This document shows, one piece after another, positions 32,932 through 51,783 of a DNA stretch of 64,000 bases. Every line of letters begins with the position of its first letter. Within the stretch, counting starts at the first letter, position 1. The notes beneath the pieces were generated by a model, which had not been told where the DNA came from, ran no database searches, and was given only the letters and a program-made list of their open reading frames with translations. The DNA is taken from contig CP084166.1 in the NCBI GenBank assembly GCA_021513695.1, positions 32,001 to 96,000 of the forward strand, written 5' to 3'. Made by a program: the position numbers and the translations under genes. Source of the DNA: Candidatus Heimdallarchaeum aukensis (GTDB lineage Archaea; Asgardarchaeota; Heimdallarchaeia; Heimdallarchaeales; Heimdallarchaeaceae).

Positions 32932-33345
32932 TTTTTAGACCAAGTAACGCTTCAATGAAGGTATATAAAGGAAATATGCTTTAGGAAAATATTACAAGAT
33001 TTTTTTGAAAAGAACTAATGTAACATAGAAAATAAATGCATTTTTAGAAAAATACAAGCAAAAATTGCCTAAATATAATAAAAAGGTGTTTTTTATTTTA
33101 AGGCATATCTAAAGAACTCTTGAGAATACTACTAATCGTTAAATTATTTAAAAATTATATACTCCCATTAGTATAAATTATAATCTTTTATTATAGGGTT
33201 ACAATTCTATAGATTTGAAGCATTGTTATTTTTTGTTATTTCTAGCTATCATTCTATTAATAATTAAACACAAGATAAATAAATAAAATTACAAACAATA
33301 AAATGATTAACTAACATAATTGTAAGTAGATTATTTGGTGTGAAA

Positions 33346-34543: not shown

Positions 34544-34709
34544 ACATGATTTTTAAACTTTAAATTTGACTGCTAAAAATGCAACTTTTCAAGGCTTGTA
34601 GTACATTTTATATATTAATTATCGTATAGTACTCTTTAGAGTTCTGGGATTGGAATTGGGGCTATTATTTCCTGGAGTAAGTAATTGAAAATTGAAAAGA
34701 AGTGTAAAA

Positions 34710-37700
34710 ATGAAAAAAAGTAAAATTAAAGTTATTTCTATTATCGCTATTTTTCTTCTCATCTTGAACGTCTCGACGATATACGTTCAAGGTCAGATGG
34801 TAGGTAATGAAACTAAATTAATGATGACTGGAAATCCTACAGAAGTTTATGAAGATCAGATAGCGATTCTGTATGATCCATTTAATGATATGACAAGAGA
34901 ACTAGCAAATTCGATTTATGAGACTGTTCATATGTTTTATTCTAACGTGAAAATGGTCAAAGTTTTCAATTTAGATTCATTTAACAGAGCTTTTTATGAT
35001 GATGATTGGATTAAAATCTATGTTTTCGACTCTGACTTAAAAGGAATAAAATTTGCTGGTTGGACAATGTCATGGAGAAAACTAACTGGATACTACAATG
35101 TTTTCAAAGATACAAGGCACATTGGAGTTTATGGAAACTCATACAAGATGGGTCCATATCTTAAGACTGAAAACTGTTATATAGAAAATACAGAGATTCT
35201 AGATTATCGTATTGCTTACATTCATGTATTGTGGTCATTATATGATATTTTTACAGAAAAAGAAGATGAAATTCTTCAACAAATAGGAGAAAATTTCAAA
35301 TTAATAGCAATTAAATATTTTGGAGATTCATTTGAAGAAATAATGTCTGCCGAGTTTGATCCACAAGGATTAGGTGTTGTTGACCCAAAAAAGGCAGAAG
35401 AAAGATTACAAGATTCAATGGACCAATATCCAAAGAGATTAAATAAAGTTAATCCATATACGGGTGAGTTAGTTGATCCAACAGCAGAGATTGAAGGATT
35501 TAATCCTGTAATGGATATTAAACCCAAAGCAGCGATAGATGAAGATGACATTGTTTTAGGTGAGTTTCCGTTCTTATCTTCGATTCCTGGAGCTGCAGGT
35601 GACGTTATTAAAATAATTTTAGAGTTTATAGGTGTCGAGATACCAGAAGGTTTATTGACTGTAGGTAAAGAATATGGGGGGCAGATCGTCGCAATAATTA
35701 AAGAGATACCTAAAATTATTGGTTTCTTTAAGGATCCAAGTGCAAGTAGTGCTATTGAACTATTTTTTGATGTAGCAAAAGAAATGTTTCCCAGTATAGA
35801 AGAATATAAGCCCTACTTCGATATAGTAGTGAAAGCCCTATTTTCGATAAAAGATATTGCTTCAGGGGATCTTACTCCTTTAATTGATATATCAATGGAA
35901 CTTCTACGATTTATAATTCCTGATAGTGTAGGAGATTTTGTTGACGATGTTTTTGATGCTTTAAACATATCAAGTGCCCTTTCTGATATTATTAGTGGAG
36001 TTACTAATGTTGGTGATTATCTTAAGAGTTTTCTCAATAGGCAACTAATTACAAATTTAATGAAGAAATTTATTGAACAGACTTTAGATCTAGGGGGAGA
36101 ATCCCAAAAATGGATAGATACCATTTCAGAGATTATTATGATTGCTTATGAAATTGCCAGCACTCGAGATATGGATCACATAATAGCGGATGTCTTTCCA
36201 CGATTAGGAAAATTAGTTTACAAGAACATCTTAGATATGACCTATGATGAAAATGTAGAAAATACCTTCAAAGGAATTGCTGTTGCAATTAAGATGGGTT
36301 TTGGAGCTGCTGGAATCATTGATGTTAATCTTAAGGATTCATTTATGGATTTAATAGGCTTCTTCTTCCCTGACCTCGTTGAGACAGTTAATGATGTTAA
36401 ATTCTTTGTTTCAAGTATTAGGTCTCAAATTGATTCCTTTATGGATCTTGTTAAAGATGTTTCAGAAGGTAAAAATCTAGATGTAAACAACGTTCATGAC
36501 CAAATTATATCTTTAATTACTGAGCTTAGTTCATTATCAGGTCATTCTCTCGATGCAAATAAGATAAATGTACTCTCTCAAGCTGTTTTGATGGCTTTAG
36601 CTCTAATAAATGGTGATTTTGAAGCTTTAAGTGATACTAGCTGCCTAACAAGTCTAGTTGATGGATTTCTAGAACATTTTATTGGACTAGAAGAAGGTCC
36701 TAGAGAAATTGTACAAAAGGCAATAGAAGCTGGAGCAGCTATTTTACCTTTCATTACTGGGAAAAAGAGTTTGAAAAAATATATTATGGGAAGACTTGAA
36801 GATTTTGCTGACAAATTCAAGAATCCTGGAGAAATAATTGAAAAGGTTCTTTATTATTTCCTAAGCAAGTACAACGCAAGTACTCAACTTTACCAACTTA
36901 TTGGAAAAATTGTAGGAATAGTCATTGACATCTTTTCTGGAGGATTTGACTTTTCTGTTCAAAATGTTATTCAGACAATAATCTCAATGGCAGTTGTAGT
37001 TTTGAACATGTTAGATGTCAATATTCCGTTAGAAGCAATGTACAAGAGTTTTCAACTTCTATGGGAAGAGGGGCCAGAATTTTCCAATGTTGTAAAAGTA
37101 GTTCAAGATATTATGGGATTACTTGGAGGAAGCATTGACCCAACAATTAAAACTACTGTAGAAACAGTTCTTACTTTTCTAGGAGGAGCAAAGAATATCT
37201 TCAAAGATGGAATAAAATGGATAATGAACCAACTTGTAGGTTGGGCAGCAGGGCAGATTGCTAATTTATTAAATATGCTTACTGATAAATTAAATGAACT
37301 GTTCCAATCTCTTGGTGATTTGGTAAGTTATGATTCTGAATTCCCAATTGGTTTCGGAAGTTTTACTGCCTTCCAGATGCGAGTATTCTTCTCTTTAAGT
37401 CCTGGATTCGAAATTAACCCTGAACCAATTCAAGAGCTCATTATGAGTATGATTTTTGATGGGTCAAAGGTTTTTGATCTCGATAATATCGGAGAATTGT
37501 TTAAGCTTATCTTAAAATCAATTTCAATTATTCCTATTTTCAAAGCTGGACTTGAAATCAAAGCAGGAACGTCTGGAAAGAACGACTTAATGAAGATGCT
37601 CCTTGATTCTCTTGGTCTGGAACTTTCATTCTCTGGCTCTGCAGGACTAACACTGCAATTAATGAAGATTTCTAATGGTAAAATAAGTACTAGTGATTTC

Positions 37701-40700
37701 TTCAAAGTAATAGAATTCTTCTTTAAATTCCAGATATCAATAGCTAAAACATTCCCATTAGCAGAATTTCTAGGTCCAGGAGGAGCAGTTTTAGCTAAAG
37801 TTGCAGAATTCTTAGGTTTAGGTGGAATTTACCTAAAGATAGAGTTCTTTATAGCAATAGAAATTGTTAAACGATGTGAGACACCTACTCAGAAGGCTGC
37901 AGATATTTTAACAATTGTAATAGGAATAGGTGTTTCTGTAATTATTGATATCGACTTGGTAATTGTTGGAATAAAAATAACTATAGGTTTTGTAGTGACG
38001 CTGACGTTTATCCAGGACTTCTTGGCGGACGCACCGCTGCAAGTGATACTCGAGATAGAGTTCACTGTAGCGGTGAAACTGACGTTCTTGTTCGTCGACT
38101 GGACAGGAACAGCGTCATGGGGTCCAGATCCAATTTATCTGGCAGGAGGACCGGATGATGAAAGCACAAAAGACGAAATGAGCGGCTTGGACGCAGATGG
38201 GGATGGGTTACCTGATTCATATGAGTTAGGAGTTCCAGGAATGAAAGTAGACAGCGATGACAGTGATGGAGACGGTTTATCAGACCAATTCGAAGTGAAA
38301 ACGAGTAAAACAGACCCTATCACTGCAGATTCTGACGATGATGGTCTAGATGATTACATGGAATATGAAGTCTTAAAGACCAATCCTCTACAAGTAGATA
38401 GTGACTATGATGGTTTAACTGACTATGAAGAAGTTGTTATCTATGGAACTGATCCTAATGCACAAGATACAGATGGTGATCAATTAGATGACTATTACGA
38501 AGTAAATACTGCATGGAATATCACTGGAATAACTCCAAGTGTAAGATTTGTTACAATTGGGGGAGTAGAGTATAAAGATCATACTGATCCTCTTAATCCT
38601 GATACTGATGGTGATGGACTTCTAGATGGACAAGAAGGAGAATTTGGGGCTTATTATGGACCAGAATTGTATAACACTTCAGACCCAAGTTGGGATCCCT
38701 ATCCAATATTCTACAATCAAGGATATACTCATCCATTAGATAATGATACCGATGATGATTCTTATAAACAATTAGCAAATGGAACTATAGCTCCAGATCG
38801 TCAGTTCTTAATCTATATGTCTGATAAGGTAGAAATAGATGGACAATGGGTTATTTTCATTGAAGATGATGAATTAATGGGTAGAGTAGTTAGAACTAAC
38901 CCAATTAACCCTGATACTGATGGTGATTCAGCAGTAATGGATAAATCTTGGAGAGGTGATGGGGCTCCTCTTGACTTTTTCCTGAAGTCTGATGGTTACG
39001 AACTCTGGTTAGATCCGCCGACAGACCCGAATGACGCGGATATGGACGATGATGGATTAATTGACGGTTTAGAGGGTTGGGGTAATAAGATCAGTAATCA
39101 TACTGATCCTCGTAATCCTGATACTGATGGTGATGGACTTGGAGACCTGCAAGATATTCTACTCGGTTCGGATCCTTTGAACCCTGATAGTGATATGGAT
39201 GGAATTCTAGATGGTGAGGAGTTCTTCAAGTATGGAACTAACCCCGCTTATGAAGATACAGATCATGATGGGCTTTTGGATGGTGAGGAAGTTTATCTAT
39301 TCCACACAAACCCTCTGGCGGTAGATAGCGATGGAGATGGGATAGATGATGGAATGGAGGTATTAGTTTATGGTTCAGACCCGATGGATGAAGATATGGA
39401 TAACGACGGTCTAACAGACTGGGAAGAGATTTTCTACTACTTTACCAATCCTAGAGATTACGACTCAGATGATGATGGTCTAAGTGATGCTATGGAGGTT
39501 TTAGATGAATATGCTATATACACTGACCCATTGAATTGGGACTCTGATAATGATTCAATCACATATCCTAATGAAAACGGAAATTATACTTTCCCACTTT
39601 CTGATGGAGATGAAGTACTAATTTACGGAACTGACCCATTGACAAGCGATACTGATGGAGATGGATTGCACGATTCGTTTGAACTATATCTTGGTTCAGG
39701 TTTAATTTACAACTTTACTCCTGTACCTTTGGATCCGTTATCTAACGATACTGATGGAGATGGAATATATGATGCAAATGAATACCACATTGCAAATGTC
39801 TCTAACATCATTTATCCTTATGTTAGTTTTATCATCACCCAACCTTACAATACTTCTCCAGTAGATCCAGACTCTGATGATGACGGGATTATCGATGGAG
39901 ACGAAGTCTATGTATATGGAACTATGCCAGATATGAAAGATACAGATGGAGATGGACTAGACGATTGGAGTGAACTTAATATTATGTATACTAACCCTCT
40001 GAGTTCGGATACGGACAATGACTATCTGACAGATTGGGAAGAATGGTATGCGGGTTTTGAACATCCAGGATATCTACTTGATCCTAACGACCCTGATTAT
40101 GATAATGATATGCTGCCAGATGGGCCAGAGTTACTACTTTACGGTTCTAATCCTAATAATGCCTATGAGATTGATCCAAGTTCAGGAAAAGTCGATGGTC
40201 TGTTGATGGATTGGGACCATGATGGTCTAGAAGATGGTTTAGAGTTCTTTGTATACAACACTAGTTATGTAGCAGGAGGAGGAGTCACCCAGCCAGATAG
40301 TGATAGAGATGGTTTGATGGATGGTGCAGAAGTATATGTTCATGGTACAGTCCCCACGAATTGGGATACTGACAATGATACATATAGTGATGGATTAGAA
40401 GTGATGTTAGGACTAGATCCTCTTACATATACAACAGAAGAGGAATTTATAGCAGCTCTATCTGCAAATCAAGATATGCTAGAAGCAGGAGTACTAGTTA
40501 TCTCACCAATAGAAGGTGGAATTTACTCTCCTTCTAACTATACTTTCATCCTCTATAACGTGACAGAACTACTGGGCGTACAATATCAAATGAAGAAGAA
40601 CAAACAAGATTTCGGAGACAACATGAGTATGTACTATGATGATGTTTCAAGGACGTGGATAACTCAAGGAGATTATATTGGACCTGGAGATTATATCGTC

Positions 40701-40913
40701 AGATTTTATGTGACAAAACCTGATGGAAATGTTTCGTTTATAGAACGGACGTTTTATGTCGAAGGAAGTCCAGTTGTCTCTCTACCTTGGGTCTTTGCGG
40801 GAATAGGTGGGGGAGTAGCTATTGGTGTTGCTTCAACTTTGACCGTTTATGCAGGAAGAGCAGGAAAACTGCGATTCTTAAAGAATATCTTTAAAAGAGG
40901 AGGTGCTTCATAA
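34710..40913 (+). CDS. Giant surface protein (about 2,067 aa). Domains in order: signal peptide, orphan N-terminal module of about 1,130 aa (helical then beta-rich), long TSP3 repeat array, beta-sandwich-like domain, C-terminal TM anchor.
   Basis: - The ATG at 34710 gives MKKSKIKVISIIAIFLLILNVSTIYVQG. The track start at 34692 is a TTG.
- More than 25 DxDxDGxxDxxE motifs lie at DNA about 38180-40400.
- C-terminal anchor: VFAGIGGGVAIGVASTLTVYAG.
- The stop overlaps the next start (TAATG). Confidence 0.85.
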   Translation: MKKSKIKVISIIAIFLLILNVSTIYVQGQMVGNETKLMMTGNPTEVYEDQIAILYDPFNDMTRELANSIYETVHMFYSNVKMVKVFNLDSFNRAFYDDDWIKIYVFDSDLKGIKFAGWTMSWRKLTGYYNVFKDTRHIGVYGNSYKMGPYLKTENCYIENTEILDYRIAYIHVLWSLYDIFTEKEDEILQQIGENFKLIAIKYFGDSFEEIMSAEFDPQGLGVVDPKKAEERLQDSMDQYPKRLNKVNPYTGELVDPTAEIEGFNPVMDIKPKAAIDEDDIVLGEFPFLSSIPGAAGDVIKIILEFIGVEIPEGLLTVGKEYGGQIVAIIKEIPKIIGFFKDPSASSAIELFFDVAKEMFPSIEEYKPYFDIVVKALFSIKDIASGDLTPLIDISMELLRFIIPDSVGDFVDDVFDALNISSALSDIISGVTNVGDYLKSFLNRQLITNLMKKFIEQTLDLGGESQKWIDTISEIIMIAYEIASTRDMDHIIADVFPRLGKLVYKNILDMTYDENVENTFKGIAVAIKMGFGAAGIIDVNLKDSFMDLIGFFFPDLVETVNDVKFFVSSIRSQIDSFMDLVKDVSEGKNLDVNNVHDQIISLITELSSLSGHSLDANKINVLSQAVLMALALINGDFEALSDTSCLTSLVDGFLEHFIGLEEGPREIVQKAIEAGAAILPFITGKKSLKKYIMGRLEDFADKFKNPGEIIEKVLYYFLSKYNASTQLYQLIGKIVGIVIDIFSGGFDFSVQNVIQTIISMAVVVLNMLDVNIPLEAMYKSFQLLWEEGPEFSNVVKVVQDIMGLLGGSIDPTIKTTVETVLTFLGGAKNIFKDGIKWIMNQLVGWAAGQIANLLNMLTDKLNELFQSLGDLVSYDSEFPIGFGSFTAFQMRVFFSLSPGFEINPEPIQELIMSMIFDGSKVFDLDNIGELFKLILKSISIIPIFKAGLEIKAGTSGKNDLMKMLLDSLGLELSFSGSAGLTLQLMKISNGKISTSDFFKVIEFFFKFQISIAKTFPLAEFLGPGGAVLAKVAEFLGLGGIYLKIEFFIAIEIVKRCETPTQKAADILTIVIGIGVSVIIDIDLVIVGIKITIGFVVTLTFIQDFLADAPLQVILEIEFTVAVKLTFLFVDWTGTASWGPDPIYLAGGPDDESTKDEMSGLDADGDGLPDSYELGVPGMKVDSDDSDGDGLSDQFEVKTSKTDPITADSDDDGLDDYMEYEVLKTNPLQVDSDYDGLTDYEEVVIYGTDPNAQDTDGDQLDDYYEVNTAWNITGITPSVRFVTIGGVEYKDHTDPLNPDTDGDGLLDGQEGEFGAYYGPELYNTSDPSWDPYPIFYNQGYTHPLDNDTDDDSYKQLANGTIAPDRQFLIYMSDKVEIDGQWVIFIEDDELMGRVVRTNPINPDTDGDSAVMDKSWRGDGAPLDFFLKSDGYELWLDPPTDPNDADMDDDGLIDGLEGWGNKISNHTDPRNPDTDGDGLGDLQDILLGSDPLNPDSDMDGILDGEEFFKYGTNPAYEDTDHDGLLDGEEVYLFHTNPLAVDSDGDGIDDGMEVLVYGSDPMDEDMDNDGLTDWEEIFYYFTNPRDYDSDDDGLSDAMEVLDEYAIYTDPLNWDSDNDSITYPNENGNYTFPLSDGDEVLIYGTDPLTSDTDGDGLHDSFELYLGSGLIYNFTPVPLDPLSNDTDGDGIYDANEYHIANVSNIIYPYVSFIITQPYNTSPVDPDSDDDGIIDGDEVYVYGTMPDMKDTDGDGLDDWSELNIMYTNPLSSDTDNDYLTDWEEWYAGFEHPGYLLDPNDPDYDNDMLPDGPELLLYGSNPNNAYEIDPSSGKVDGLLMDWDHDGLEDGLEFFVYNTSYVAGGGVTQPDSDRDGLMDGAEVYVHGTVPTNWDTDNDTYSDGLEVMLGLDPLTYTTEEEFIAALSANQDMLEAGVLVISPIEGGIYSPSNYTFILYNVTELLGVQYQMKKNKQDFGDNMSMYYDDVSRTWITQGDYIGPGDYIVRFYVTKPDGNVSFIERTFYVEGSPVVSLPWVFAGIGGGVAIGVASTLTVYAGRAGKLRFLKNIFKRGGAS
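38180..40400 (+). repeat. In-frame TSP3-type Ca-binding repeat array within the giant CDS 34710..40913.
   Basis: More than 25 DxDxDGxxDxxE units, interrupted by short non-repeat inserts. Confidence 0.8.
40897..40905 (+). promoter_or_regulatory. Shine-Dalgarno sequence for the second giant gene. It lies inside the 3' end of the first gene, and the stop and start overlap (TAATG).
   Basis: GAGGAGGTG lies 7 nt upstream of the ATG at 40913. The TAA at 40911-40913 shares its last A with the ATG. Confidence 0.7.
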
Positions 40914-43900
40914 TGCACGTAAAAAATAATTTAATTTGGAAGAAAGTATTAATCCTTTCTTTATTAGCTATAATGATTAGTTCACTAGTAGTAGGAATGC
41001 CCAATGCTCCGTTTGTTAATGCAGAAACTAATTCTGCACAATCTTTGCCTGATACAATAAGTTTAGAGGAAGCTAAACAACTAATGCAACAAATAAATGA
41101 AGGCAATGGTGGGGGCAACTTTGCTTCTGTTGAGCAACAAATCATTGATCCTGATTTAGATTTAAGTAGGTTATTAGCTGATAATCCTAATGAATATCAA
41201 CAAACATATCAACCTTGGAAATCTCAAGCTGCTGTTAGAAGTATAACCATCTCTGATGATTATGAATTTATGGCAGTAGGGGGAGGATATCTCTTTGACA
41301 ACGAAGTACAAGTATATCGATGGAACCCTGATATTAATCAATATGCTAAAGTTTGGGTGAGTGGAGATTCAGTTATTAAAGGCGATGTAATAGATGTCGA
41401 TTTTGGAGATACTGATAATAATGATTTCTTAGAAATTATTGCCACATCTTCTGACGGGTATTTCTACGTCTTTGAACAAGAACATATTTTTGACCCTGTA
41501 ACAAATACAGAAAATAGATTTGATCTTGTTTACACTAGTCCTTATTTAGGTCAAGTGTGGGGTGTAGAAGTTAATGATACAGATTTAGATCATCTAGACG
41601 ATATAATTGTCGTAAGTTGGGATCACAAAGTACATGTTTATGAATATTGGTTACACTCTGGTTATCCATTCAATTCAGAACATTGGATTACATATAGAGA
41701 AAAATGGCAAAGTCATGATACAGGTTATCATTTGTCTTCTTTAGTTGTTGGAGATACAAACTATAATGGTCTTCCAGACTTTGTTGTGGGAACGAGAGAA
41801 GGAGCTATTCTAGTTTTCGAAAATAATGGAACTATTTTAGATATCCAAGGACAACCTTATCCTCTTGCCCAAGATAATAGTTACAAATTAATTTATGCTG
41901 ATAATGAGTCAATTTGGAGACCAATTTACTCTATGGATATAGGTAATCTAGATAACTCTCCAGGAGATGAAGTAGTAATAGCTTCCTTTGCTTTTAATGG
42001 ATACATTCTAAGGTATGATGATTATAAAGGATATTACTTACAGAAGCTGATAAAAGACTTTGAATCTTGGACTTTGAAAGACTTTTATCCTGCAGATCAT
42101 TATGTAGATAATGGAACAGCAGGACAAAATGTATATTTCCAAGATCCAAATTATACAGGAACAACAGTTGAAGAGCCTATTTTGCAAAGTAATCCTGCAT
42201 TTATAAAAGGAAACTATCCCTATAATACTGGAGCTGCGCAAAATAATGATACATGTTATACTCATTTCGAATCTAATAGTACTCATGCTGCATGGGAAGT
42301 ATATGATTTTGGAGCAGATGAAGAGGGAACAGGAAATGGGAATGATGCTGCAGACATATTATTAAAATTCAAAACTTTACTATTTGATTACATATATAGA
42401 GATGATTTTATTATTTCTATCTCTCCAGACTATGAACATTGGGTAACTGTTGATCCTTCTCTTATTAATACATTTAATGTTGCCGCATCAACAAAATATC
42501 TCAGAATTAATGTAGATCCAATTTTAATTGAAAATAAATGGAATTACTTCAGATACATCAATGTAACAGTAATTTCTAATTCTACCAAAGATTATAACTT
42601 GTTATCTATAGAATTGCCTTATGTTTACCAAACTGTTTCAACAGCTTTAAGTGCTGAAGTGGGAACTTTAATGACCAGTACAGATACTAATGAAGAAGTT
42701 ATCCATGCAATTTTAGGAACAGTTGATGGCCGTCTTGTAGCTTTTAAATATGATGCCACTTCAGACTCGTTTGTTTTATCTTGGGATAGCTGGGTAGATG
42801 ATAGATTTACTGTTGGAATAAACATATGGGATATAGAACAAGTTAAGAATCTAGGCTCTATGCCTATGATATACGGAGTTACTGATTTGGAAACAGGTTA
42901 TCAACTTAGGATAAGTCCCTCTCCAGGAAGCCAAATTTCACAAGTGATTTTTGATTATACATTGTTCAATATTGATGGAGATTCTCCAGTTACAGGCGAA
43001 TTTGCAATTGTGGGTGGTAATGGAGATGTGTATTACTTTGATAATGGATTTGATTATGATGCTGCACAAACAACCCAATACTTCTCTTCGATCAACGATT
43101 ATGCAACTTATACAGGAAATATATCAATAGGTGCAGTAGAAATTGATACAGACTATTCCCAAGAAGAATTACTTATCGGTCATTACGATCCAAGTCTTTC
43201 TAATCAATACGATGACTTTGAAGATGATTCTTCAGATGTACTTCCAGCAGATATAAAAATATGGACACAAGTATCTTCAAAATATGAGTTAAATATATCA
43301 CTTTATAGTTTGGAAACAACTGGTCAACTTCGTGAAATATTAAAAAGTGCTCAATCAATTCCTTCAGCAGAAGGAGAGGATATTGATGGGGACGGAGATG
43401 TTGATATTGTTGTTTGTATTGAGAATCTATATCTACTTTGGAACATAGGAACACCAAGTAATCCAGAATTTATTTTGGATTCTGATTACTTTAAAGATAT
43501 AAATGAAGTAAAAGGAAGAAGACAATTCCTACATCCTCAATTTGTGGAATTTGAAATGGATGGAATTTATGATCTATCGATTGGCTACTCAAATAGAGTG
43601 GGAGCAACATATTTTGATAATTATGGAACTGCTCTTGCTCCTAAATGGGAAGAAAGAAAAGAGTTAGTTAACAACTTTGATGAAGAAGCTACAATAAATG
43701 TCTATAACTTTACTAGACCTCTCTGGATAAAATATTCAGAATTTGATGAATATTCTACTTTGTTATTAGAACATAATACAGGAAAGAGCTACTATGACAA
43801 GTACTACATATATACAATGCTAGATGATAGAAATGGTGACATGGTTTACTTCATGATTTCAAATAAAATACAAACTAGCTTCATGGTAGCATCTAATCCT

Positions 43901-46900
43901 ACTGTATCTAGAATCGAAGTTAACACCTTCAAATCTGAAGAATATGGAGGGATCTATAAGTGGAGGAATTTTGGATTTAGGGCAATTATAAGCTGGACGA
44001 CAGCAATAGATCTCTATAATTGGACTTTGACTGTAGATTCTGGAGATTTAGACCAAGATGGGAAAGGAGAAATTATAGTAGGAGACTATGATAGTAATGT
44101 ATACATCTTTGAGCATATGACTAATAATACTTACAAACGTGCATTCAGGTCTCCTGATATGCTCCAGTATGTTCCAACTGATGAAACACCTTATAGTTGG
44201 GACAAATTTGGAGGATATGAAGGAGAGTTTAATCAGACAATTTGGAACCATGTGAGCTATTTGCTTGTGAATGCTGATAGTGATGGAGACGGTTATCTTG
44301 AGTTAGCTGCTCTTGCAGGAACAGTTCTGTATGTATTTGAAGACACGGGAATAGATGATACATACTCATACATGTATAGACTAGATGTTTTAAGGAGTTC
44401 AGCAGGAGAATACTTGAAAGAAAATGGTTTTCTTACACCTTCTGGTTTAACATGGGCTCAAGATTTAGATTTAGATGGTTATGGAGAGTTCATAATAGCC
44501 TTTGAAAAACAAGTATTTGTTTATGAACCTTATTCTGGAACACTCTATGAACTGTTTGGTAATGTTGCATCTGATGACCCTGAAACAGGACACTATAATA
44601 TTTTAGGAAATGCTAGGGTATTTGATAATATTACAATAAATGGAATGTTATGTTCTGACATTAATGAAAATGGAAGAGAAGAACTTTTCATTTATGGTTC
44701 TGTAGATGTTGATCTTCTTGATTATGAAGAAGGATTTATTGTAATGATTGAAAGCATCGATCTAGGCTATAAGATAATCTGGCAAGGACCAACAGAGTTA
44801 GTTAGTAGAAATATTATTACAGACCTTGAAATTGCTGACCAGGACTATGATGGTTTCAAAGAATTGATCATTGGTGGAAGTAAAGGTGTAAGTATTTACG
44901 AATTTGTTGGAGGAACAACTGCTAGCTTTACTCAAGAGGGACTAATTACAGGACACATGAATTATCCCCAAATGGCAGCTCATTCACTATTTGGAAAATA
45001 TAGTTACAATGATGATTATGACTATAGAAAACAGAGGTCTCATGATATAAGACAGATAGTTTACAGTGGAGGTTCAAATAATCATTCATATATTTCTGCT
45101 TTTAGTGAGTATAACGATACAATGGGTGCATATGCTATATATCAAAAAGTAAGTCATGACGGAGTAAATTGGTTATCGAGCAAACTTATAGCTTATTGGT
45201 ATTCTGGTGGTTACATAAGTTTATACTTCCCCTCACTTACACAGACAAGTAATTACTCTCTCTGGTTAGCAGTTACTTGTAAATTTTATAGCGTAGGTTT
45301 AGGTTCCGTATATGGCGTTCTTCTATATCGTTCAGATGATTATGGGGCAAATTGGGTATTCGTAGATGGATTGGCTTCAGAATATATAGAAGAAGGTTCA
45401 ACAAATCCGATATATTCACCCACAATATTCCCAACAGGACCTAATTCAATAGGTTTAGTGTATATTTTCAGACCAAATAACACTTATTCAGAATTATACT
45501 ATGGAGGGTTATTTGATAATGGAACAGTAATACCTCAAACAAAAATCGAGGGTTTTGATGATTTCATGTTCAACGGTGTTGATGTTGATTCAAAACCTGA
45601 TAATAGTGGAGTATATGCTGCTGCTTTTAGTGCTAAAAAGTATATTGAAGAAAAAGATGATTACGATATCTGGTACTGTGAATTTAATTCAACCTATGGA
45701 TTAATACTTGAACCAAGAAGACTATTTACTTCATTCTCTGTTGAGCATACTCCTAGTATTACTTATGTCCACAATGATGCCTATTCTAGACTTCTAACAT
45801 TTGATTCTTCTGGATTACAAAAGGCGATGACTTTATCATATGGAATGGTTTCTGATGATGGAATACATTGGTCTGACCCAGATATACTTGCTGAATATCC
45901 AGAGTATATTATTCCTCCAACTAAGTCAAACCCCTATCCAAAGATATCTGGTTTCTCTAACAGTTGGAGTATATATGATCTAGGTTTCAGAGCTCCAAAA
46001 GTTGCTCCAACCTACGATGGTAAATTCATATTACTTACAAAATTTGATGCAACTATTGTCTACTTCTCATTCCCAATCTTCTATATATATTATTATAATG
46101 ACTACGTAAGCCAAATTTATCCATTGAACTTTACAAGTTTTGTAGGGTTAAACACTGTAACAGATCTTGCTGTTGGAGACTCGGATAGAGATGGTAGAAA
46201 AGAGATAATGATAGCTGATGGATATCGAGCAGAAATGTTTGAGTTACTTAACACAAAAAATAGGAAGCAACTTTATACAAGCAAATGGTATAGTCCTGAG
46301 CATGATAATCCTGTTTCCGATGTAACTATGTTTGACACAAATGGTAACGGTTTTCCTGAACTAATTTACAGCGTTCAAGGCGAAGACATTTATGTATATG
46401 ATGTTGTAAATATTCATTTACCAAAGGCAGATTTACATAAATTACAATCAACTACTTTAGACTTATCTGGTGCTGGAAAGGTTATAACTAGAATTAAATC
46501 AGATCTAAATGATGACGGAATAAATGACATGGTGGTTTATTGCGAAGGAGGAAAAATGTATGGAATCTTAGGTAATAACCTGTCAATTTTATGGACTTTG
46601 GAAGATTCATTAGTTTCTCCAAATTGGTTCCTCGAAGAATCAATTTATCATGGTAATAGTGCTCTAATTTTTGTAAATAGTAATGGAACAACTTTGTGGA
46701 TAGACAAGAAAACAGGACAAGTTATAACCTCTCTTGATTTAGGTGAAGGAAGTTATACCTTAAATCCAATAGCAACAATGCTTAACTATACAAAGGATAA
46801 CACCATGGACATTGCCATTAAAGGTGATGCTCCTGGACATATTTATCTCTTTGACGGGAATAATGGTTCGCTTCTAAAGGATCTCACTTTCGACACTGAA

Positions 46901-48922
46901 AGATATGTGCAAGAAATTGAAGTAGCACATGAGCAAGGAGAGGATTATCTCATAGTTTCTTATTATTGGATAGAATATAAAGACCTAGGTGGCGGTATTA
47001 TTGTATGGATATTCCATGGAAAGATTACTGCTTACAACTTATCTTCGTCCTCACTAGATCAAATATGGGAAGTTAACTCTTACTATGCTGGAGGATTTAG
47101 AGGGGCAAATTTAATAGTAGATGATATTAATGGAGATGGAGATTCAGAAATATATGCATTTGGTGGTGGAATAAAATTACTTGATGCTAATGGTACTGAA
47201 TATTGGCGGGCTTACAACTATTTCTACTCTTATGATGCTGTTATATTTGATATAAATGATGATGGAATTAAAGATATAATTACTTCTTCAGGACAGAATA
47301 GTAAAGTTACAGCTCTTGATGGAAAAGATGGAAATGTTACTTGGAGTAATATACCCACCCAGAATATCTATGACTTAGAGATTAGTGACCCAGAAGGAGA
47401 AGATCCAATCCTTTATCTAGCTAACTCTAGAACAGATTATCAAGGAATAATTTTCTTAAACATTAGGAATGGTGGGTTCTTAGGTTACTATTACGACACA
47501 AGTAGTGATTTTCTAAATGATAACGCATTGGTACCAACCACTGTGGATTCAAAACCTGCAGTCTTAGCAGTTGATTATGACGCAGAGAAAATTTATCAAG
47601 TTCAAATAAATGAAACAGAACAAGTTTATGAGCATGATATTATACCTAAACTCTCCTTTGATCAAATACTTAAAACTGGAAAGAATGTTAACCCCGATAC
47701 TGTTATTTATGACAATCTAAACGACGATGAGTATGTAGAAATTTTCTATATACAAAATGGAAATGAGTCATTCATCTATAATCCAATCAAAGGTGAGTAT
47801 ATTGAAGAATATACTATCCCTACAAATGGGAGTGTTCTTTATGCTTTCAAAGCTAATTTATCTGACACTTCATTCTATGATTCTATTTTTATAATTACCT
47901 CTGAATACAAGGTAGGTGTTTTAGATCTCACTTCAATGAGTTATAAAAAGATATTGGACTTATCAGGTTATGTAGATGAAATTGCTTCATATGCTTACTT
48001 GGATATTACTGAAGATGTATTTATTTTAGGTTTCTTTGACTATACAAAGAAAGCATGGTACGTAGGCGCATGGAATATTAAAGGAGAAGAGGTATTCTCA
48101 CCTATTTACCAAGGTTCTCATAAACCAGATCAAATAAATGCAGGTAAATTACTTGATAAAGCCACGTATGAAGAAGGAGCAGCTTTTGTAATAACAAGCT
48201 TTGGTGCATACATATATGCTTATGATCTTAAGGGAACACAACTAGCTATGATTAAACAAGATGGACCTGCAGGTTTCACAGCTTTAGGAGAACTGAAAAA
48301 AGGATTAGGTTTTGAGTTTGTTTACTATAGGTTTGGAGATAAATTCTACTGTTATAACCTTAATACCATGACTGATGAATGGTCATCTACTTTAAGAAAT
48401 GACAATGAACTATTATCTATTGCTGTAGGATATATTGATAGCTCTACTAATCCTGATTATGCTAAAGTATTTGTTTCGCAGAGCGGTACAGGAATTTATG
48501 CATTTGATGATGTAGATAAAGAGTTATGGTATCACAGACATAATTCTTTTGTTGCTAAATTCCTTCATGTGATCAATGATGAAGCTTTAGGCAAGGTTCT
48601 TCAAGTTACAGATTATCATAGAACATTCTACATCAATGGAACAACTGCTGAAGTTTTATATGCTACAAGTACCTTGATGAAACAAGTTCTTTGGGTAGGA
48701 ACATGGTCTTCTCCAGACTCTGCATATGACTCAATAGCATTCTTTGATGGAAACTCATTCTATAGTCGAGGAATAGATGTTTCTTCTTCAGGAGCTTCAA
48801 CAGTGCAAGATCATATGGAAATCTCTGCAGAAAGGTTAACAAGACTTAGTACTCCAATAATTATAATGATGAGTGTAATGGTAACCATAATCACTCTTGT
48901 CTTCAGAAAAAATAAAAGTTAA
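40913..48922 (+). CDS. Giant surface protein (2,669 aa). Domains: signal peptide, multiple FG-GAP/VCBS-type propeller repeats, an Asp-box (BNR) region, PQQ/BamB-like repeats, C-terminal TM anchor.
   Basis: - Strong SD GAGGAGGTG at 40897-40905.
- FG-GAP-like units: LVVGDTNYNGLPDFVVGTREGAILVFEN, DSGDLDQDGKGEIIVGDYDSNVYIFE, LAVGDSDRDGRKEIMIADGY, VDDINGDGDSEIYAFGGG.
- Asp-box-like motifs: SHDGVNW, SDDYGANW, SDDGIHW (DNA about 45150-45875).
- PQQ-like unit: ALDGKDGNVTWS.
- C-terminal anchor: IIIMMSVMVTIITLVF. Confidence 0.85.
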   Translation: MHVKNNLIWKKVLILSLLAIMISSLVVGMPNAPFVNAETNSAQSLPDTISLEEAKQLMQQINEGNGGGNFASVEQQIIDPDLDLSRLLADNPNEYQQTYQPWKSQAAVRSITISDDYEFMAVGGGYLFDNEVQVYRWNPDINQYAKVWVSGDSVIKGDVIDVDFGDTDNNDFLEIIATSSDGYFYVFEQEHIFDPVTNTENRFDLVYTSPYLGQVWGVEVNDTDLDHLDDIIVVSWDHKVHVYEYWLHSGYPFNSEHWITYREKWQSHDTGYHLSSLVVGDTNYNGLPDFVVGTREGAILVFENNGTILDIQGQPYPLAQDNSYKLIYADNESIWRPIYSMDIGNLDNSPGDEVVIASFAFNGYILRYDDYKGYYLQKLIKDFESWTLKDFYPADHYVDNGTAGQNVYFQDPNYTGTTVEEPILQSNPAFIKGNYPYNTGAAQNNDTCYTHFESNSTHAAWEVYDFGADEEGTGNGNDAADILLKFKTLLFDYIYRDDFIISISPDYEHWVTVDPSLINTFNVAASTKYLRINVDPILIENKWNYFRYINVTVISNSTKDYNLLSIELPYVYQTVSTALSAEVGTLMTSTDTNEEVIHAILGTVDGRLVAFKYDATSDSFVLSWDSWVDDRFTVGINIWDIEQVKNLGSMPMIYGVTDLETGYQLRISPSPGSQISQVIFDYTLFNIDGDSPVTGEFAIVGGNGDVYYFDNGFDYDAAQTTQYFSSINDYATYTGNISIGAVEIDTDYSQEELLIGHYDPSLSNQYDDFEDDSSDVLPADIKIWTQVSSKYELNISLYSLETTGQLREILKSAQSIPSAEGEDIDGDGDVDIVVCIENLYLLWNIGTPSNPEFILDSDYFKDINEVKGRRQFLHPQFVEFEMDGIYDLSIGYSNRVGATYFDNYGTALAPKWEERKELVNNFDEEATINVYNFTRPLWIKYSEFDEYSTLLLEHNTGKSYYDKYYIYTMLDDRNGDMVYFMISNKIQTSFMVASNPTVSRIEVNTFKSEEYGGIYKWRNFGFRAIISWTTAIDLYNWTLTVDSGDLDQDGKGEIIVGDYDSNVYIFEHMTNNTYKRAFRSPDMLQYVPTDETPYSWDKFGGYEGEFNQTIWNHVSYLLVNADSDGDGYLELAALAGTVLYVFEDTGIDDTYSYMYRLDVLRSSAGEYLKENGFLTPSGLTWAQDLDLDGYGEFIIAFEKQVFVYEPYSGTLYELFGNVASDDPETGHYNILGNARVFDNITINGMLCSDINENGREELFIYGSVDVDLLDYEEGFIVMIESIDLGYKIIWQGPTELVSRNIITDLEIADQDYDGFKELIIGGSKGVSIYEFVGGTTASFTQEGLITGHMNYPQMAAHSLFGKYSYNDDYDYRKQRSHDIRQIVYSGGSNNHSYISAFSEYNDTMGAYAIYQKVSHDGVNWLSSKLIAYWYSGGYISLYFPSLTQTSNYSLWLAVTCKFYSVGLGSVYGVLLYRSDDYGANWVFVDGLASEYIEEGSTNPIYSPTIFPTGPNSIGLVYIFRPNNTYSELYYGGLFDNGTVIPQTKIEGFDDFMFNGVDVDSKPDNSGVYAAAFSAKKYIEEKDDYDIWYCEFNSTYGLILEPRRLFTSFSVEHTPSITYVHNDAYSRLLTFDSSGLQKAMTLSYGMVSDDGIHWSDPDILAEYPEYIIPPTKSNPYPKISGFSNSWSIYDLGFRAPKVAPTYDGKFILLTKFDATIVYFSFPIFYIYYYNDYVSQIYPLNFTSFVGLNTVTDLAVGDSDRDGRKEIMIADGYRAEMFELLNTKNRKQLYTSKWYSPEHDNPVSDVTMFDTNGNGFPELIYSVQGEDIYVYDVVNIHLPKADLHKLQSTTLDLSGAGKVITRIKSDLNDDGINDMVVYCEGGKMYGILGNNLSILWTLEDSLVSPNWFLEESIYHGNSALIFVNSNGTTLWIDKKTGQVITSLDLGEGSYTLNPIATMLNYTKDNTMDIAIKGDAPGHIYLFDGNNGSLLKDLTFDTERYVQEIEVAHEQGEDYLIVSYYWIEYKDLGGGIIVWIFHGKITAYNLSSSSLDQIWEVNSYYAGGFRGANLIVDDINGDGDSEIYAFGGGIKLLDANGTEYWRAYNYFYSYDAVIFDINDDGIKDIITSSGQNSKVTALDGKDGNVTWSNIPTQNIYDLEISDPEGEDPILYLANSRTDYQGIIFLNIRNGGFLGYYYDTSSDFLNDNALVPTTVDSKPAVLAVDYDAEKIYQVQINETEQVYEHDIIPKLSFDQILKTGKNVNPDTVIYDNLNDDEYVEIFYIQNGNESFIYNPIKGEYIEEYTIPTNGSVLYAFKANLSDTSFYDSIFIITSEYKVGVLDLTSMSYKKILDLSGYVDEIASYAYLDITEDVFILGFFDYTKKAWYVGAWNIKGEEVFSPIYQGSHKPDQINAGKLLDKATYEEGAAFVITSFGAYIYAYDLKGTQLAMIKQDGPAGFTALGELKKGLGFEFVYYRFGDKFYCYNLNTMTDEWSSTLRNDNELLSIAVGYIDSSTNPDYAKVFVSQSGTGIYAFDDVDKELWYHRHNSFVAKFLHVINDEALGKVLQVTDYHRTFYINGTTAEVLYATSTLMKQVLWVGTWSSPDSAYDSIAFFDGNSFYSRGIDVSSSGASTVQDHMEISAERLTRLSTPIIIMMSVMVTIITLVFRKNKS

Positions 48923-49113: not shown

Positions 49114-49791
49114 ATGTTGATGGTACCTACTCAGATGAAAAAAATAACCATACTAGGGACAACTGGTAGTGGAAAGACCACCTTTTTAGAAGCTTTATTT
49201 GGTGATTTTGAAAAAAATGATGTTAAAAGAGATTTGAGTAAAGAAAAAAGTTCAAATTGTGATTTTATTCCTTTGAAAAATAATACATTCAAAGAAAGTA
49301 CAACAACAATAAGTTTGAATGTCATTAATTCATTGCTTTATTTGACTACATTTAATCGATTAGGTTTAGAAAAGTTCGAAAATAGAGACAATATTGACTT
49401 TGAAAATGTTGAAGAGATTTATCAAATAGTTTTCAATGATCCTGCAGGACAAGAAAGATTTGATTTCATGCAAGAGATAGCAGTAAGAGGAGCAAACCTA
49501 GTAATTATAATGGCTGATGGCACAAATATCTCGAGTTTAGAAAAAGTAGTTCATTATATTTCGTTGGTAAAAATTGAAGAAAATCTATCTAAAAAGAAAA
49601 TACCGACTATTATTTTCATCAACAAATCTGATTTAAAGGAAAAGGGTGTTTATTTAGGAAAAAATGTAGCTGAGCAGATTATTTATTCAAGCATTCTTGA
49701 TGAGAAATTACTTATTTATGAAACTTCTAACCTTAAGAGAGAAACATATGATGAACCTTTGAGGATTATTTTTAACTATCTTTCATACTAA
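49114..49791 (+). CDS. Small GTPase (Rab/Ras-like) with an extended switch-I region.
   Basis: - G1: GTTGSGKTT.
- G3: DPAGQERF (Rab/Ras-type DxxGQE).
- G4: NKSD.
- About 75 aa separate G1 and G3, which is longer than in canonical Ras-family proteins.
- GGGGGT lies 7 nt upstream of the start. Confidence 0.8.
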   Translation: MLMVPTQMKKITILGTTGSGKTTFLEALFGDFEKNDVKRDLSKEKSSNCDFIPLKNNTFKESTTTISLNVINSLLYLTTFNRLGLEKFENRDNIDFENVEEIYQIVFNDPAGQERFDFMQEIAVRGANLVIIMADGTNISSLEKVVHYISLVKIEENLSKKKIPTIIFINKSDLKEKGVYLGKNVAEQIIYSSILDEKLLIYETSNLKRETYDEPLRIIFNYLSY

Positions 49792-49843: not shown

Positions 49844-50818
49844 ATGAGCGTAAAAATAACCTCAGAATATATAGAGCTGCTGAATAAAGCAGTTGCAAGA
49901 GAATTACAAGTTTCTGTTCAATATTTTCTACAACACGCTAAAATTGAAAAAATAATGAGAAAAGTTAAAGCTGAAAATATTTTACTTGATTCCACAACTT
50001 ACGACCAGATAGGTCAGATTTTAAAGAAACTAGCAATAGAAGAAATGAAACATGCAGGATCAATCGTTGAGAGAATTTATTATTTGGGAGGCAAGGCAAC
50101 AACTAAAGCTTTTAAACCTAAAATAGGAGAAAATATGCAAGAATTTATGAAATATGGCTTTGAAGCTGAAGAAGAAGCTTTAGAATTATATCGTGAAATA
50201 ATCCGCGAGGCAGGTAAATTAGGAGATTATGATACTAAAGAACTCTTTAGGAAAATCTATAGAGAGGAAGAAGAACATCTTTATACGTTTCAAGAATATT
50301 TAACAATTAATATTAGTGAACCTGGAGAGACAGCACCAAAGTCCGAATGGAGAAAAGTTTTTGACGACGAATACTTTGCTCTATTAAACAAAGCCTTAGC
50401 TTCAGAACTGTCTGCTATTATTCAGTACATAACCCAACATGAAAAAGCGAGTGCAATCAATCTTAGGAAAAAAGAAACGCCTTTAGAAGTAATTACCAAT
50501 ACAAACAAAGCGCAAGTTATTAGTAACATGTTAAAGAAAATCTTTATGCAAGAAATGGAACATTACGAAAAGATTTCTGAAAGAATATACATGTTGGATG
50601 GAGAATGTACATTGGATCCTGATCCTTTGCCAAAAGTTGGTGAGAGCGTAGAAGATTTCTTGAAACTGGGTCATCAAGCTGAAGATGAAGCTATTGTTCT
50701 TTATCGTAAAATCATAGAAGAAGCTACTAAGAAGGGAGATATAACTACTAAGAAGATGTTTGAAGAAATATTGATGGAAGAAGAAGAACATTACTGGATG
50801 TTTGATGACTACTTGTAA
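49844..50818 (+). CDS. Tandem ferritin-like (bacterioferritin/rubrerythrin-type) di-iron protein with two four-helix-bundle halves in one chain.
   Basis: - First half: ELQVSVQY, EEMKHAGS, EAEEEALE, EEEEHLYTF.
- Second half: ELSAIIQY, QEMEHYEK, AEDEAIV, EEEEHYWMF.
- Together this gives two complete E..ExxH..E..ExxH ligand sets. Confidence 0.75.
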   Translation: MSVKITSEYIELLNKAVARELQVSVQYFLQHAKIEKIMRKVKAENILLDSTTYDQIGQILKKLAIEEMKHAGSIVERIYYLGGKATTKAFKPKIGENMQEFMKYGFEAEEEALELYREIIREAGKLGDYDTKELFRKIYREEEEHLYTFQEYLTINISEPGETAPKSEWRKVFDDEYFALLNKALASELSAIIQYITQHEKASAINLRKKETPLEVITNTNKAQVISNMLKKIFMQEMEHYEKISERIYMLDGECTLDPDPLPKVGESVEDFLKLGHQAEDEAIVLYRKIIEEATKKGDITTKKMFEEILMEEEEHYWMFDDYL

Positions 50819-51254: not shown

Positions 51255-51704
51255 ATGAAATTGAATATTACCCAATTTAAGATTAAATTCAAGGATAAAA
51301 TAGAAATTGAAAATGAAGAGAAATTTGCAGATAATATAATCTATTATTATCCGTTTTTTCAATCTTTAGATAAAAATGAGTTAGAGAAGTCTCTTCAATC
51401 AATAAGAGAAGAAAAAAAAGTCTTGGAGAAAAAATTCAAAAAAATAAAAGAAGAGTTCTCAGATATACTGGGAGAGATAGCAAAAATACGTTTCACAGCT
51501 AATGAATTATATAATCAAAATAGGGTTATAGCTCTGACTACAGGGTTATTAAGACATAAGCTGATAGATTTACATAATAATAATGTTGAACTTCCTTTTG
51601 ATTATGAGGAAACACTTAAGTTTGTAGAACATTTTATTTATAGATATTTAACTAAAAAAGAAGATAAAAGACTTGTTGCCCAGCTACCTTTTAAAGAGAT
51701 TTGA
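51255..51704 (+). CDS. Hypothetical helical protein.
   Basis: The ORF is contiguous with the previous gene and is coiled-coil-like. No family recognised. Confidence 0.4.
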   Translation: MKLNITQFKIKFKDKIEIENEEKFADNIIYYYPFFQSLDKNELEKSLQSIREEKKVLEKKFKKIKEEFSDILGEIAKIRFTANELYNQNRVIALTTGLLRHKLIDLHNNNVELPFDYEETLKFVEHFIYRYLTKKEDKRLVAQLPFKEI

Positions 51705-51783
51705 GAAAATTCACACTTTTTCTATTTGGAATAGTAATACTAAGTTTTATATTAAAAATAGAGAACCTTATTGCAAGGTCAAA

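Follow-up and report, generated by a model that had tools for sequence, protein, structure and literature searches.

A diverged Asp-box propeller domain probably lies among the FG-GAP repeats of a giant predicted surface protein of Candidatus Heimdallarchaeum aukensis

The subject of this analysis is part of a giant gene in a 64,000-nucleotide (nt) stretch of the Candidatus Heimdallarchaeum aukensis genome (contig CP084166.1 of assembly GCA_021513695.1, positions 32,001 to 96,000 of the forward strand), which we refer to as the window and whose first letter is position 1. The segment at nt 44948-46174 probably encodes a very diverged six-bladed Asp-box propeller, which would act as a non-catalytic module of an adhesin-like surface assembly. 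The domain is a new, highly diverged family inside a known superfamily, in a protein without annotation; an exact-sequence look-up of the giant returns UJG40918.1, 'hypothetical protein K9W45_00320', and its orthologue in H. endolithica is annotated merely as a 'VCBS repeat-containing protein'.

The arrangement that we favour is one in which the propeller would be stapled by a regular Asp-box in blade 2 and by short Asp-boxes (s-Asp-boxes) in blades 1 and 5, these acting as structural clips between blades and not as sugar-binding sites. The propeller would be set at a blade boundary of an integrin-alpha-like run of FG-GAP repeats in the ectodomain of the giant, followed on its C-terminal side by two further FG-GAP repeats and then by what appears to be a hybrid FG-GAP/PQQ_2-like propeller. 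Its most likely role would be that of a non-catalytic module for ligand recognition (possibly of glycans) or of a scaffold within the adhesin-like assembly, and a 2,073-residue protein with TSP3 repeats, apparently co-transcribed with the giant, is probably its partner.

Three Asp-box-type motifs

A sequence-only reading of the window had placed the motifs SHDGVNW, SDDYGANW and SDDGIHW at nt 45152, 45332 and 45851, and all three are present at these sites. Only the second (box 2) is a full eight-residue Asp-box, and boxes 1 and 3, with one residue fewer, are of the s-Asp-box type. The regular consensus is (S/t)-x-(D/n)-x-G-x-(T/s)-(W/f/y), and the s-Asp-box, S/t-x-D/n-x-x-x-W/f/y, is a structural variant that occupies the same site, the loop that joins strands 3 and 4 of a blade (Quistgaard & Thirup, 2009; PMC2716378). 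The same survey describes Asp-boxes as structural clips from blade to blade that are frequently absent from several blades of a propeller, and that lie on the face opposite the active or sugar site and are thus not sugar-binding themselves. Members of the superfamily carry at least two Asp-box or s-Asp-box motifs, and the domain has one regular and two short ones.

The strict pattern S.D.{0,1}G..W has three matches in the giant, all inside 240 amino acids (aa), and no further match when the 64-kb window is translated in all six frames. Shuffled versions of the giant sequence contain a mean of 0.054 matches, and three or more were never reached in 20,000 shuffles. The published s-Asp-box pattern, which is looser, shows no enrichment in the giant (9 matches, with 8.5 expected), and because it occurs at chance frequency the significance of the motifs rests on their strict form, their conservation and their context. 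Statements on conservation within the domain refer throughout to an alignment of 11 orthologous sequences (38-90 % identical), in which all three motifs occupy the same columns in every member. The invariant residues are S, D, G and W of box 1, S, G and W of box 2, and S, D and W of box 3, which reads SSDYLEW in most orthologues. Two further strings, KDDYDIW and TYDGKF, were suggested as extra Asp-boxes by MAFFT and were rejected, as they fall in strand 2-3 and strand 1-2 loops of the structural model and break the consensus.

Extent and distribution of the domain family

The domain starts at aa 1346 (TGHMNYP) and ends at aa 1754, with FG-GAP repeats at both edges; where residues are numbered within the domain, position 30 corresponds to aa 1375, such that R30 and R1375 are the same residue. 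When 1.84 billion representative proteins were scanned with aa 1330-1746 using HMMER, four full or partial relatives were found together with two short fragments, and the four relatives are all giant proteins that match at an equal relative position. Two repeat-rich HMMER matches (P0005 and P0007) are false positives whose sequences are unrelated tandem repeats. A scan of 185,579 species genomes yielded eight loci with 38-90 % identity, all of them in Heimdallarchaeota or 'Promethearchaeati' metagenome-assembled genomes, and a search of a word-indexed protein database with the 11-sequence profile returned one fragment of the domain's own family and nothing else. The domain is a narrow, lineage-specific family, with no member seen outside the giant proteins of Heimdallarchaeia.

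A distant relative of the giant gene, designated L013 (744-6300, JGI metagenome 3300040952), is 36 % identical in its FG-GAP flanks and has been called as three genes, apparently owing to frameshifts or to errors in assembly. A targeted search showed that the same blade boundary is occupied by a homologous insert (30 bits and an E-value of 3e-11 with the family hidden Markov model, HMM), in which the Asp-boxes have largely decayed: there is no regular Asp-box, and box 3 has become SSTKGALW. EHTP is also missing from L013, with QLYPDMD at the position aligned to VEHTPSI, and KDDYDIW is partly retained as KADYDIY.

Evidence on the fold

The assignment of the domain as a diverged six-bladed Asp-box propeller of the sialidase fold is supported by lines of evidence that are individually weak but concordant. 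A four-sequence profile searched against the PDB matched the mouse sialidase NEU1 (8du5; E-value, 5.4e-5) and then BNR/Asp-box proteins, and 14 of the 18 matches of the 11-sequence profile at E-values up to 10 are sialidase or BNR proteins, the best being Clostridium perfringens NanH (8um0; E-value, 0.0018). Among the 11 orthologues, Pfam searches matched BNR_2 in eight (best E-value, 1.5e-4), Beta-prop_BT_1020 in three (best 4.7e-6), BNR in three and BNR_6 in three. The window sequence itself has no BNR_2 match and matches BNR_6 (16 bits, with a cutoff of 27) and Beta-prop_BT_1020, both under the curated cutoffs.

Modelling of the domain by AlphaFold gave a predicted local distance difference test score (pLDDT) of 32 when no alignment was supplied. 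With a four-sequence alignment the AlphaFold2 model has a predicted template modelling score of 0.61, with residues 90-260 at pLDDT 60-84, and consists of about 23 strands in six groups of four. Boxes 1 and 2 lie on the strand 3-4 hairpins of blades 1 and 2, where the pLDDT is 42-48 and 59-73, respectively. A Foldseek comparison of this model with the PDB puts the glycoside hydrolase family 93 (GH93) enzyme 3a71 and Porphyromonas gingivalis sialidases on top (E-values 2e-7 to 1e-6, template modelling score about 0.5), and two independent structure-comparison methods both place six-bladed propellers of the sialidase clan first; the closest folds are thus those of known Asp-box propellers. The boxes are spaced at positions 69, 129 and 302 of the domain, with a degenerate FDNG near 190, and the enzymes of glycoside hydrolase family 33 (GH33) have their boxes in blades 1, 2, 3 and 5 at distances that match this spacing. 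When the family was aligned with four GH33 sequences by hhalign in local mode, Asp-box 2 alone was aligned, and it was paired with Asp-box 2 of the GH33 enzymes. The blade matches of an HMM of the four GH33 sequences slide between registers when aligned to the domain, and the register is therefore not fixed by sequence alone.

The earlier proposal of a BNR/sialidase-fold propeller is borne out by the PDB profile matches, by the BNR_2 matches in eight of the 11 orthologues and by the GH93 and GH33 enzymes being the closest folds of the model. It had been noted that the idea would fall if profile searches found no BNR or sialidase match, or if a model placed the motifs away from blade loops; such matches were found, and boxes 1 and 2 fall on blade hairpins in the model.

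Comparison with glycosidase active sites

The same reading had suggested that the protein has a glycosidase capacity, and the residues of the domain were compared with those of GH33 enzymes using four sequences from plasmid records (P. distasonis, B. finegoldii, P. massiliensis and S. rimosus) and NanH, for which the residue numbering was verified against PMC11525138. The motif R-[IVL]-P is present in all four GH33 controls and in none of the 11 orthologues. In a MAFFT alignment of the 11 family members and the four GH33 sequences, the invariant R1375 (within Q-R-S-H-D) is aligned with the arginine of the GH33 FRIP motif, and it lies 39 aa ahead of box 1 compared with 36-37 aa for the FRIP arginine; when the profile alignment with NanH is extended without gaps, the FRIP arginine falls one residue off R1375. 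The acid/base aspartate of GH33 is about 25 aa past the first arginine, and the loop that carries it (D225 in P. distasonis numbering) corresponds to a five-residue gap in the family in the MAFFT alignment, which is one of low identity; D57 of the window protein (domain numbering) is not conserved. A G-x-G-x-G sequence is absent from the window protein and from seven of the 11 orthologues, the other four having G[IF]GFG at a comparable place along the chain. At the site of the third arginine, eight residues before the blade-5 box in GH33, the window protein has methionine and the family methionine or isoleucine. The C-terminal half of the GH33 alignment is unreliable and is at odds with the blade register of the model, and within that limit no conserved tyrosine can be placed as a nucleophile in the domain. 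There are also no glycan-utilization genes near the locus. With no R-I/V-P in any orthologue, the acid/base loop deleted and no G-x-G-x-G in the window protein, the claim of glycosidase capacity is unsupported, and since the GH33 signature is absent we do not class the domain as GH33. Judged from these residues, a non-catalytic role appears likelier than a divergent enzyme, the former being probable and the latter improbable.

Alternative explanations

Several observations weigh against the assignment of the domain as a non-catalytic Asp-box propeller, and some of them concern the fold. Used as a single query, the domain sequence finds no match in the PDB by phmmer and none in the word-indexed protein database, and none of the orthologues reaches the Pfam gathering threshold of any BNR family. 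The AlphaFold2 model has a mean pLDDT of only 50, with residues 264-409, which cover box 3 and blades 5-6, below 50, and it may have been steered by the Asp-box motifs themselves. The domain could then be some other beta-rich domain, or a degenerate FG-GAP or PQQ propeller, with convergent motifs and a model that is an artefact of a shallow alignment. This would fit the sub-threshold BNR matches, the alignment of a single Asp-box by hhalign and the chance frequency of the short s-Asp-box patterns elsewhere in the giant, and convergence of such short motifs is accepted in the literature. It would not readily account for three motifs at blade-like spacing in all 11 orthologues, for PDB profile matches that are almost exclusively to sialidases and not to FG-GAP or PQQ proteins, for the lack of FG-GAP Ca-loop motifs in aa 1346-1754, or for the preference of two structure-comparison methods for six-bladed propellers of the sialidase clan, and we consider it quite unlikely.

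Other points bear on the proposed lack of catalysis. R1375 is invariant and stands at the position of the FRIP arginine, and further R, H, D and E residues that are invariant occupy the starts of inner strands; on this basis the domain could still hold a divergent active site. The corresponding alternative would be a sialidase-clan glycoside hydrolase (GH33- or GH93-like) that is highly diverged yet active, tethered to the surface and reliant on non-canonical catalytic residues. The best fold matches are indeed all glycosidases (the GH93 exo-arabinanase and the GH33 sialidases), and the invariant residues R257, R348, E234, D238, D240, E266, H267 and D286 (domain numbering) occur at inner-strand starts or in strand 2-3 loops, which is where Asp-box glycosidases have their catalytic residues (PMC2716378). 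Set against this are the absence of R-I/V-P from the whole family and of G-x-G-x-G from the window protein, the deleted acid/base loop, the methionine in place of arginine ahead of box 3, the lack of a conserved tyrosine that can be placed as nucleophile or of nearby glycan-utilization genes, and the loss of both EHTP and the regular Asp-box in L013. A specially conserved pocket on the top face was also considered and dropped, which leaves the favoured reading with no positive sign of a binding pocket and is equally unhelpful to the enzyme: invariant loop positions on the predicted ligand face and on the opposite face number 8 of 47 and 2 of 38 in the confident part of the model (Fisher P=0.17), and 16 of 98 and 7 of 50 over the whole domain (P=0.81), so that conservation of the top face does not significantly exceed that of the bottom face. 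Taken with the residue comparison, we regard an active enzyme as improbable. A different possibility is that the tandem giants form an 'aloposon' mobile element and that the propeller protein is cargo of that element and not a surface protein of the host. Tandem giant genes, Otus and Ephialtes, are known from the same genomes, their products being 3,000-6,000 aa long and their genes located beside tRNA integration sites after a MinD/ParA ATPase gene (Wu et al., 2022; PMC8813620), and here a gene with a resolvase domain is found 2.7 kb downstream. The two proteins of the window are only 2,073 and 2,669 aa long, however, there is no tRNA in the whole 64 kb, the upstream genes encode a NAD kinase and an M42 peptidase in place of MinD/ParA, and the pair is syntenic in at least six divergent Heimdallarchaeial genomes at 40-57 % identity. 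Membership of an aloposon was rejected on size and on the missing tRNA and MinD/ParA genes, and we think this origin most improbable.

The flanking repeats

Twelve Ca-loop motifs (D-x-[DNT]-x-[DN]-G) of the calcium-binding FG-GAP type are present in the giant (Table 1). Seven precede the insert (aa 281, 823, 1045, 1122, 1184, 1249 and 1309, with a variant loop at aa 165) and five follow it (aa 1756, 1808, 1864, 2071 and 2113), and a motif scan finds none within aa 1346-1754. The insert begins just past strand 4 of an FG-GAP blade and stops at strand 1 of the blade after it. FG-GAP_3 scores 60.6 bits over the whole giant (Pfam cutoff, 26.9 bits), and both flanks of the insert have FG-GAP_3 above threshold and Ca loops at a spacing of about 60 aa. 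The placement of the Asp-box region at a border between FG-GAP and PQQ-like propellers, as had been proposed from sequence alone, is therefore wrong, since FG-GAP_3 exceeds its threshold on either side of the domain.

Further downstream, the strings ILWTLED (46586), TLWIDKKTGQV (46691), LFDGNNGSLL (46847) and ALDGKDGNVTWS (47312) are all found where they had been reported. The description of FG-GAP units blending into PQQ-like repeats is a fair one for this region, although it is an FG-GAP/PQQ_2 hybrid that stays below threshold and does not represent a clean third propeller class: in the window protein PQQ_2 reaches 18-23.4 bits (Pfam cutoff, 27.6 bits), and over aa 1850-2260 FG-GAP_3 and PQQ_2 are each matched in six of six orthologues, with best E-values of 2e-9 and 3.9e-7, respectively. 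Searches of the PDB with this region give weak and mixed matches to the PL11 enzymes YesW/YesX, a PQQ-propeller kinase and BamB. The architecture had also been called rare, which overstates the case, as reported combinations of Asp-box repeats include at least 70 other domains, and such repeats are also reported between other propeller repeats such as kelch, PQQ and Reg_prop (PMC2716378).

Table 1. Features of the giant protein and its upstream neighbour, in window coordinates
Feature	Residues (aa)	Position (nt)	Strand	Basis and remarks
TSP3-repeat partner, with its own signal and C-terminal transmembrane segments	2,073 in all	34692..40913	+	Pfam TSP3_bac, E 3.7e-23
Gene of giant predicted surface protein (Ca. 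Heimdallarchaeum aukensis)	2,669 in all	40913..48922	+	ORF (open reading frame) list and translation
N-terminal signal/anchor segment of giant, KKVLILSLLAIMISSLVVGMPNAPFVNA		40940..41023	+	Hydrophobic window from aa 10-13, then VNA-E cleavage-like site; predicted from sequence
Upstream FG-GAP repeats	Ca-loop motifs at 1045, 1122, 1184, 1249, 1309	44000..44947	+	Motif scan; FG-GAP_3 32.4 bits, aa 1046-1131
Diverged six-bladed Asp-box (BNR/sialidase-fold) beta-propeller domain (supported, weakly)	1346-1754 (~409 aa)	44948..46174	+	
Q-R-S-H-D-I motif, start of blade 1	1374-1379	45032..45049	+	R30, H32, D33 (domain numbering) invariant
s-Asp-box 1, SHDGVNW, blade 1	1414-1420	45152..45172	+	11/11 orthologues; model strands 60-69 / 78-82; s-Asp-box consensus match
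Regular Asp-box 2, SDDYGANW, blade 2	1474-1481	45332..45355	+	11/11 orthologues; Pfam BNR_6 E 0.013-0.014; model strands 119-130 / 135-148
Acidic loop KDDYDIW, blade 4 strand 2-3 loop in model	1581-1587	45653..45673	+	E234, D238, D240, W242 invariant; model pLDDT 70-84
VEHTPSI, start of blade 5 inner strand	1610-1616	45740..45760	+	Invariant in 11-sequence alignment
s-Asp-box 3, SDDGIHW, blade 5	1647-1653	45851..45871	+	11/11 orthologues; model pLDDT <50 here
Two canonical FG-GAP repeats directly after insert	Ca loops at 1756, 1808	46175..46498	+	Motif scan; FG-GAP_3 31.4 bits, aa 1756-1818
Hybrid FG-GAP/PQQ_2 (BamB-like) propeller region	1850-2260	46460..47692	+	Pfam and weak PDB matches
C-terminal transmembrane helix of giant, TPIIIMMSVMVTIITLVF, and short basic tail RKNKS		48851..48904	+	Hydropathy peak aa 2645-2647

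A possible nested arrangement

The repeats on either side of the insert raise the possibility, a tentative one that we do not consider probable, that the Asp-box propeller is nested in a single seven-bladed FG-GAP propeller between its blades 5 and 6, and is not simply one of several beads on a string. Seven canonical Ca-loop repeats span the insert (aa 1045, 1122, 1184, 1249 and 1309, then 1756 and 1808), and removal of about 390 aa restores the FG-GAP repeat period of about 60 aa. The linkers on both sides of the insert are highly conserved, and aa 1755-1850 resemble the upstream repeats in conservation, unlike the more variable C-terminal propeller; in L013 a homologous insert occupies that point too, which also fits a nested arrangement. 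Other blade counts are possible, given the degenerate repeats at aa 823, about 881 and about 975, and a profile of the concatenated FG-GAP flanks, searched against the PDB for a single seven-bladed propeller, gave no match, to integrins included. Were the head nested in this way, it and the TSP3-repeat transmembrane protein might together form a two-chain adhesion receptor. A literature search on Asgard archaea together with FG-GAP, integrin or propeller found nothing relevant.

The giant protein and its neighbourhood

Eight Heimdallarchaeial genomes contain full-length orthologues of the giant, with length and architecture preserved from end to end. Since the protein has a signal-like segment at its N-terminus and a transmembrane helix at its C-terminus, it is predicted to be a type-I membrane-anchored protein, and the propellers are therefore predicted to be extracellular. 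We note a conserved segment of about 220 aa within the N-terminal propeller region (aa 385-605, window 42065-42727; 45-76 % identity among orthologues), which is flanked by FG-GAP-like repeats and has no Pfam or PDB match, even as a six-sequence profile. It may be a second foreign domain within the FG-GAP array.

The stop codon of the TSP3-protein gene overlaps the start of the giant gene in the sequence TAATG, and the tandem of the two genes is found in six loci (L001, L002, L004, L005, L006 and L008), with 52-95 % identity between the partner proteins. This conserved pairing suggests a two-protein surface assembly. The TSP3 (thrombospondin type-3) repeats of the partner are of a bacterial, calcium-binding type, and the protein has a further hydrophobic stretch near aa 1069-1090. 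The 3′ half of its gene coincides with a peak in G+C content (0.40 at 38001-40000, compared with about 0.30 elsewhere in the window), and GC skew is positive throughout the 34-52 kb region.

Just upstream of the pair (33340-34392, +) is an enzyme-regulator fusion in which the N- and C-terminal domains of a NAD kinase are joined to a winged helix of the MarR/TrmB type (aa 286-345). A Ras/Arf-like small GTPase gene (49114-49791, +) begins 190 nt past the giant gene and in the same orientation, and a homologue of this Ras-like GTPase also follows the giant gene in L001, L002 and L004. It is followed by a gene (49844-50818, +) for a 324-aa protein with two ferritin-like domains, a 95 % identical copy of which occupies the same position in H. 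endolithica (L001); the structure of a dodecameric double-ferritin-fold protein of Ca. H. endolithica has been reported in a bioRxiv preprint (2026; 10.64898/2026.08.25.747088). The resolvase-domain gene (51673-52506, +) encodes a 277-aa protein of the serine-recombinase type (Resolvase N-terminal domain) that is 75-91 % identical in L001, L004, L006 and L007, and it is thus far more conserved than the giant (about 40 %) while being syntenic with it, which is unusual for the recombinase of a mobile element. Farther upstream, an 835-aa ORF (26203-28710, +) has no Pfam match at an E-value of 0.01 or lower.

Significance

The Heimdallarchaeia are the archaeal group placed closest to the eukaryotes and are thought to live in close partnerships. 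Recognition of the probable cryptic Asp-box propeller provides a first structural map of an unannotated, predicted surface giant that is conserved across this group, and large surface proteins with FG-GAP and TSP3 repeats are plausible mediators of contact between cells or between cell and substrate; the locus of these two genes offers adhesion studies a concrete candidate, should it become possible to culture or image Heimdallarchaeia. The domain further indicates that Asp-box propellers are able to diverge to below all curated profile thresholds while retaining only the staples of their hairpins. It opens no new mechanism, the glycosidase idea being unsupported, and mixed-repeat Asp-box proteins are already known in the literature, although not with FG-GAP in the 2009 survey (PMC2716378).

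Comparison with known systems

The closest relationship is to the Asp-box (BNR) superfamily (Quistgaard & Thirup, 2009), which includes GH33, GH58, GH74 and Vps10-D and, with s-Asp-boxes, GH32 and GH43. The likeness lies in the strand 3-4 location predicted for boxes 1 and 2 and in the best sequence and fold matches, and the blades are likewise irregular. The domain differs in falling below the Pfam thresholds of BNR, BNR_2 and BNR_6, in forming a Heimdallarchaeial family of its own and in combining, within a six-bladed propeller, one regular box with two short ones, a mixture of which the survey gives single examples only (PMC2716378).

Among individual enzymes, the GH33 exo-sialidases (C. 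perfringens NanH 8um0, mouse NEU1 8du5 and P. gingivalis PG_0352) have a similar six-bladed fold, the box spacing of the domain corresponding to blades 1, 2, (3) and 5, with an invariant arginine about 39 aa ahead of box 1. The identity in structural alignments is about 10 %, however, and the domain has R-S-H-D where GH33 has R-I/V-P, lacks the acid/base aspartate loop and, in the window protein, the G-x-G-x-G bulge, and has no locatable third arginine or Tyr/Glu pair. With the GH93 exo-arabinanases (Penicillium chrysogenum Abnx 3a71/3a72 and Fusarium graminearum Arb93A 2w5n) there is no detectable sequence similarity, and these are secreted single-domain enzymes of fungi, whereas the domain is embedded in an archaeal giant predicted to be anchored in the membrane. 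The putative hybrid Asp-box proteins of the survey (PMC2716378) likewise have Asp-boxes between other propeller-type repeats in one chain, but here the Asp-boxes apparently belong to a separate, complete propeller and not to hybrid blades, and FG-GAP is not mentioned in the survey as a partner repeat.

A last comparison is with the FG-GAP propeller of integrin alpha chains, whose blades 2 and 3 are separated by the inserted alpha-I domain. The insert of the giant is a propeller and not a von Willebrand A domain, and closure of its seven flanking repeats into a single ring is hypothetical. The two nevertheless share a foreign domain, here of about 400 aa, placed exactly at a blade boundary, with D-x-D-x-D-G Ca loops on both sides (five canonical repeats before the insert and two after it), and the giant is likewise predicted to be type-I anchored with a short cytoplasmic tail. 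If the nested arrangement were true, the archaeal lineage that stands closest to the eukaryotes would have a head resembling that of integrin alpha.

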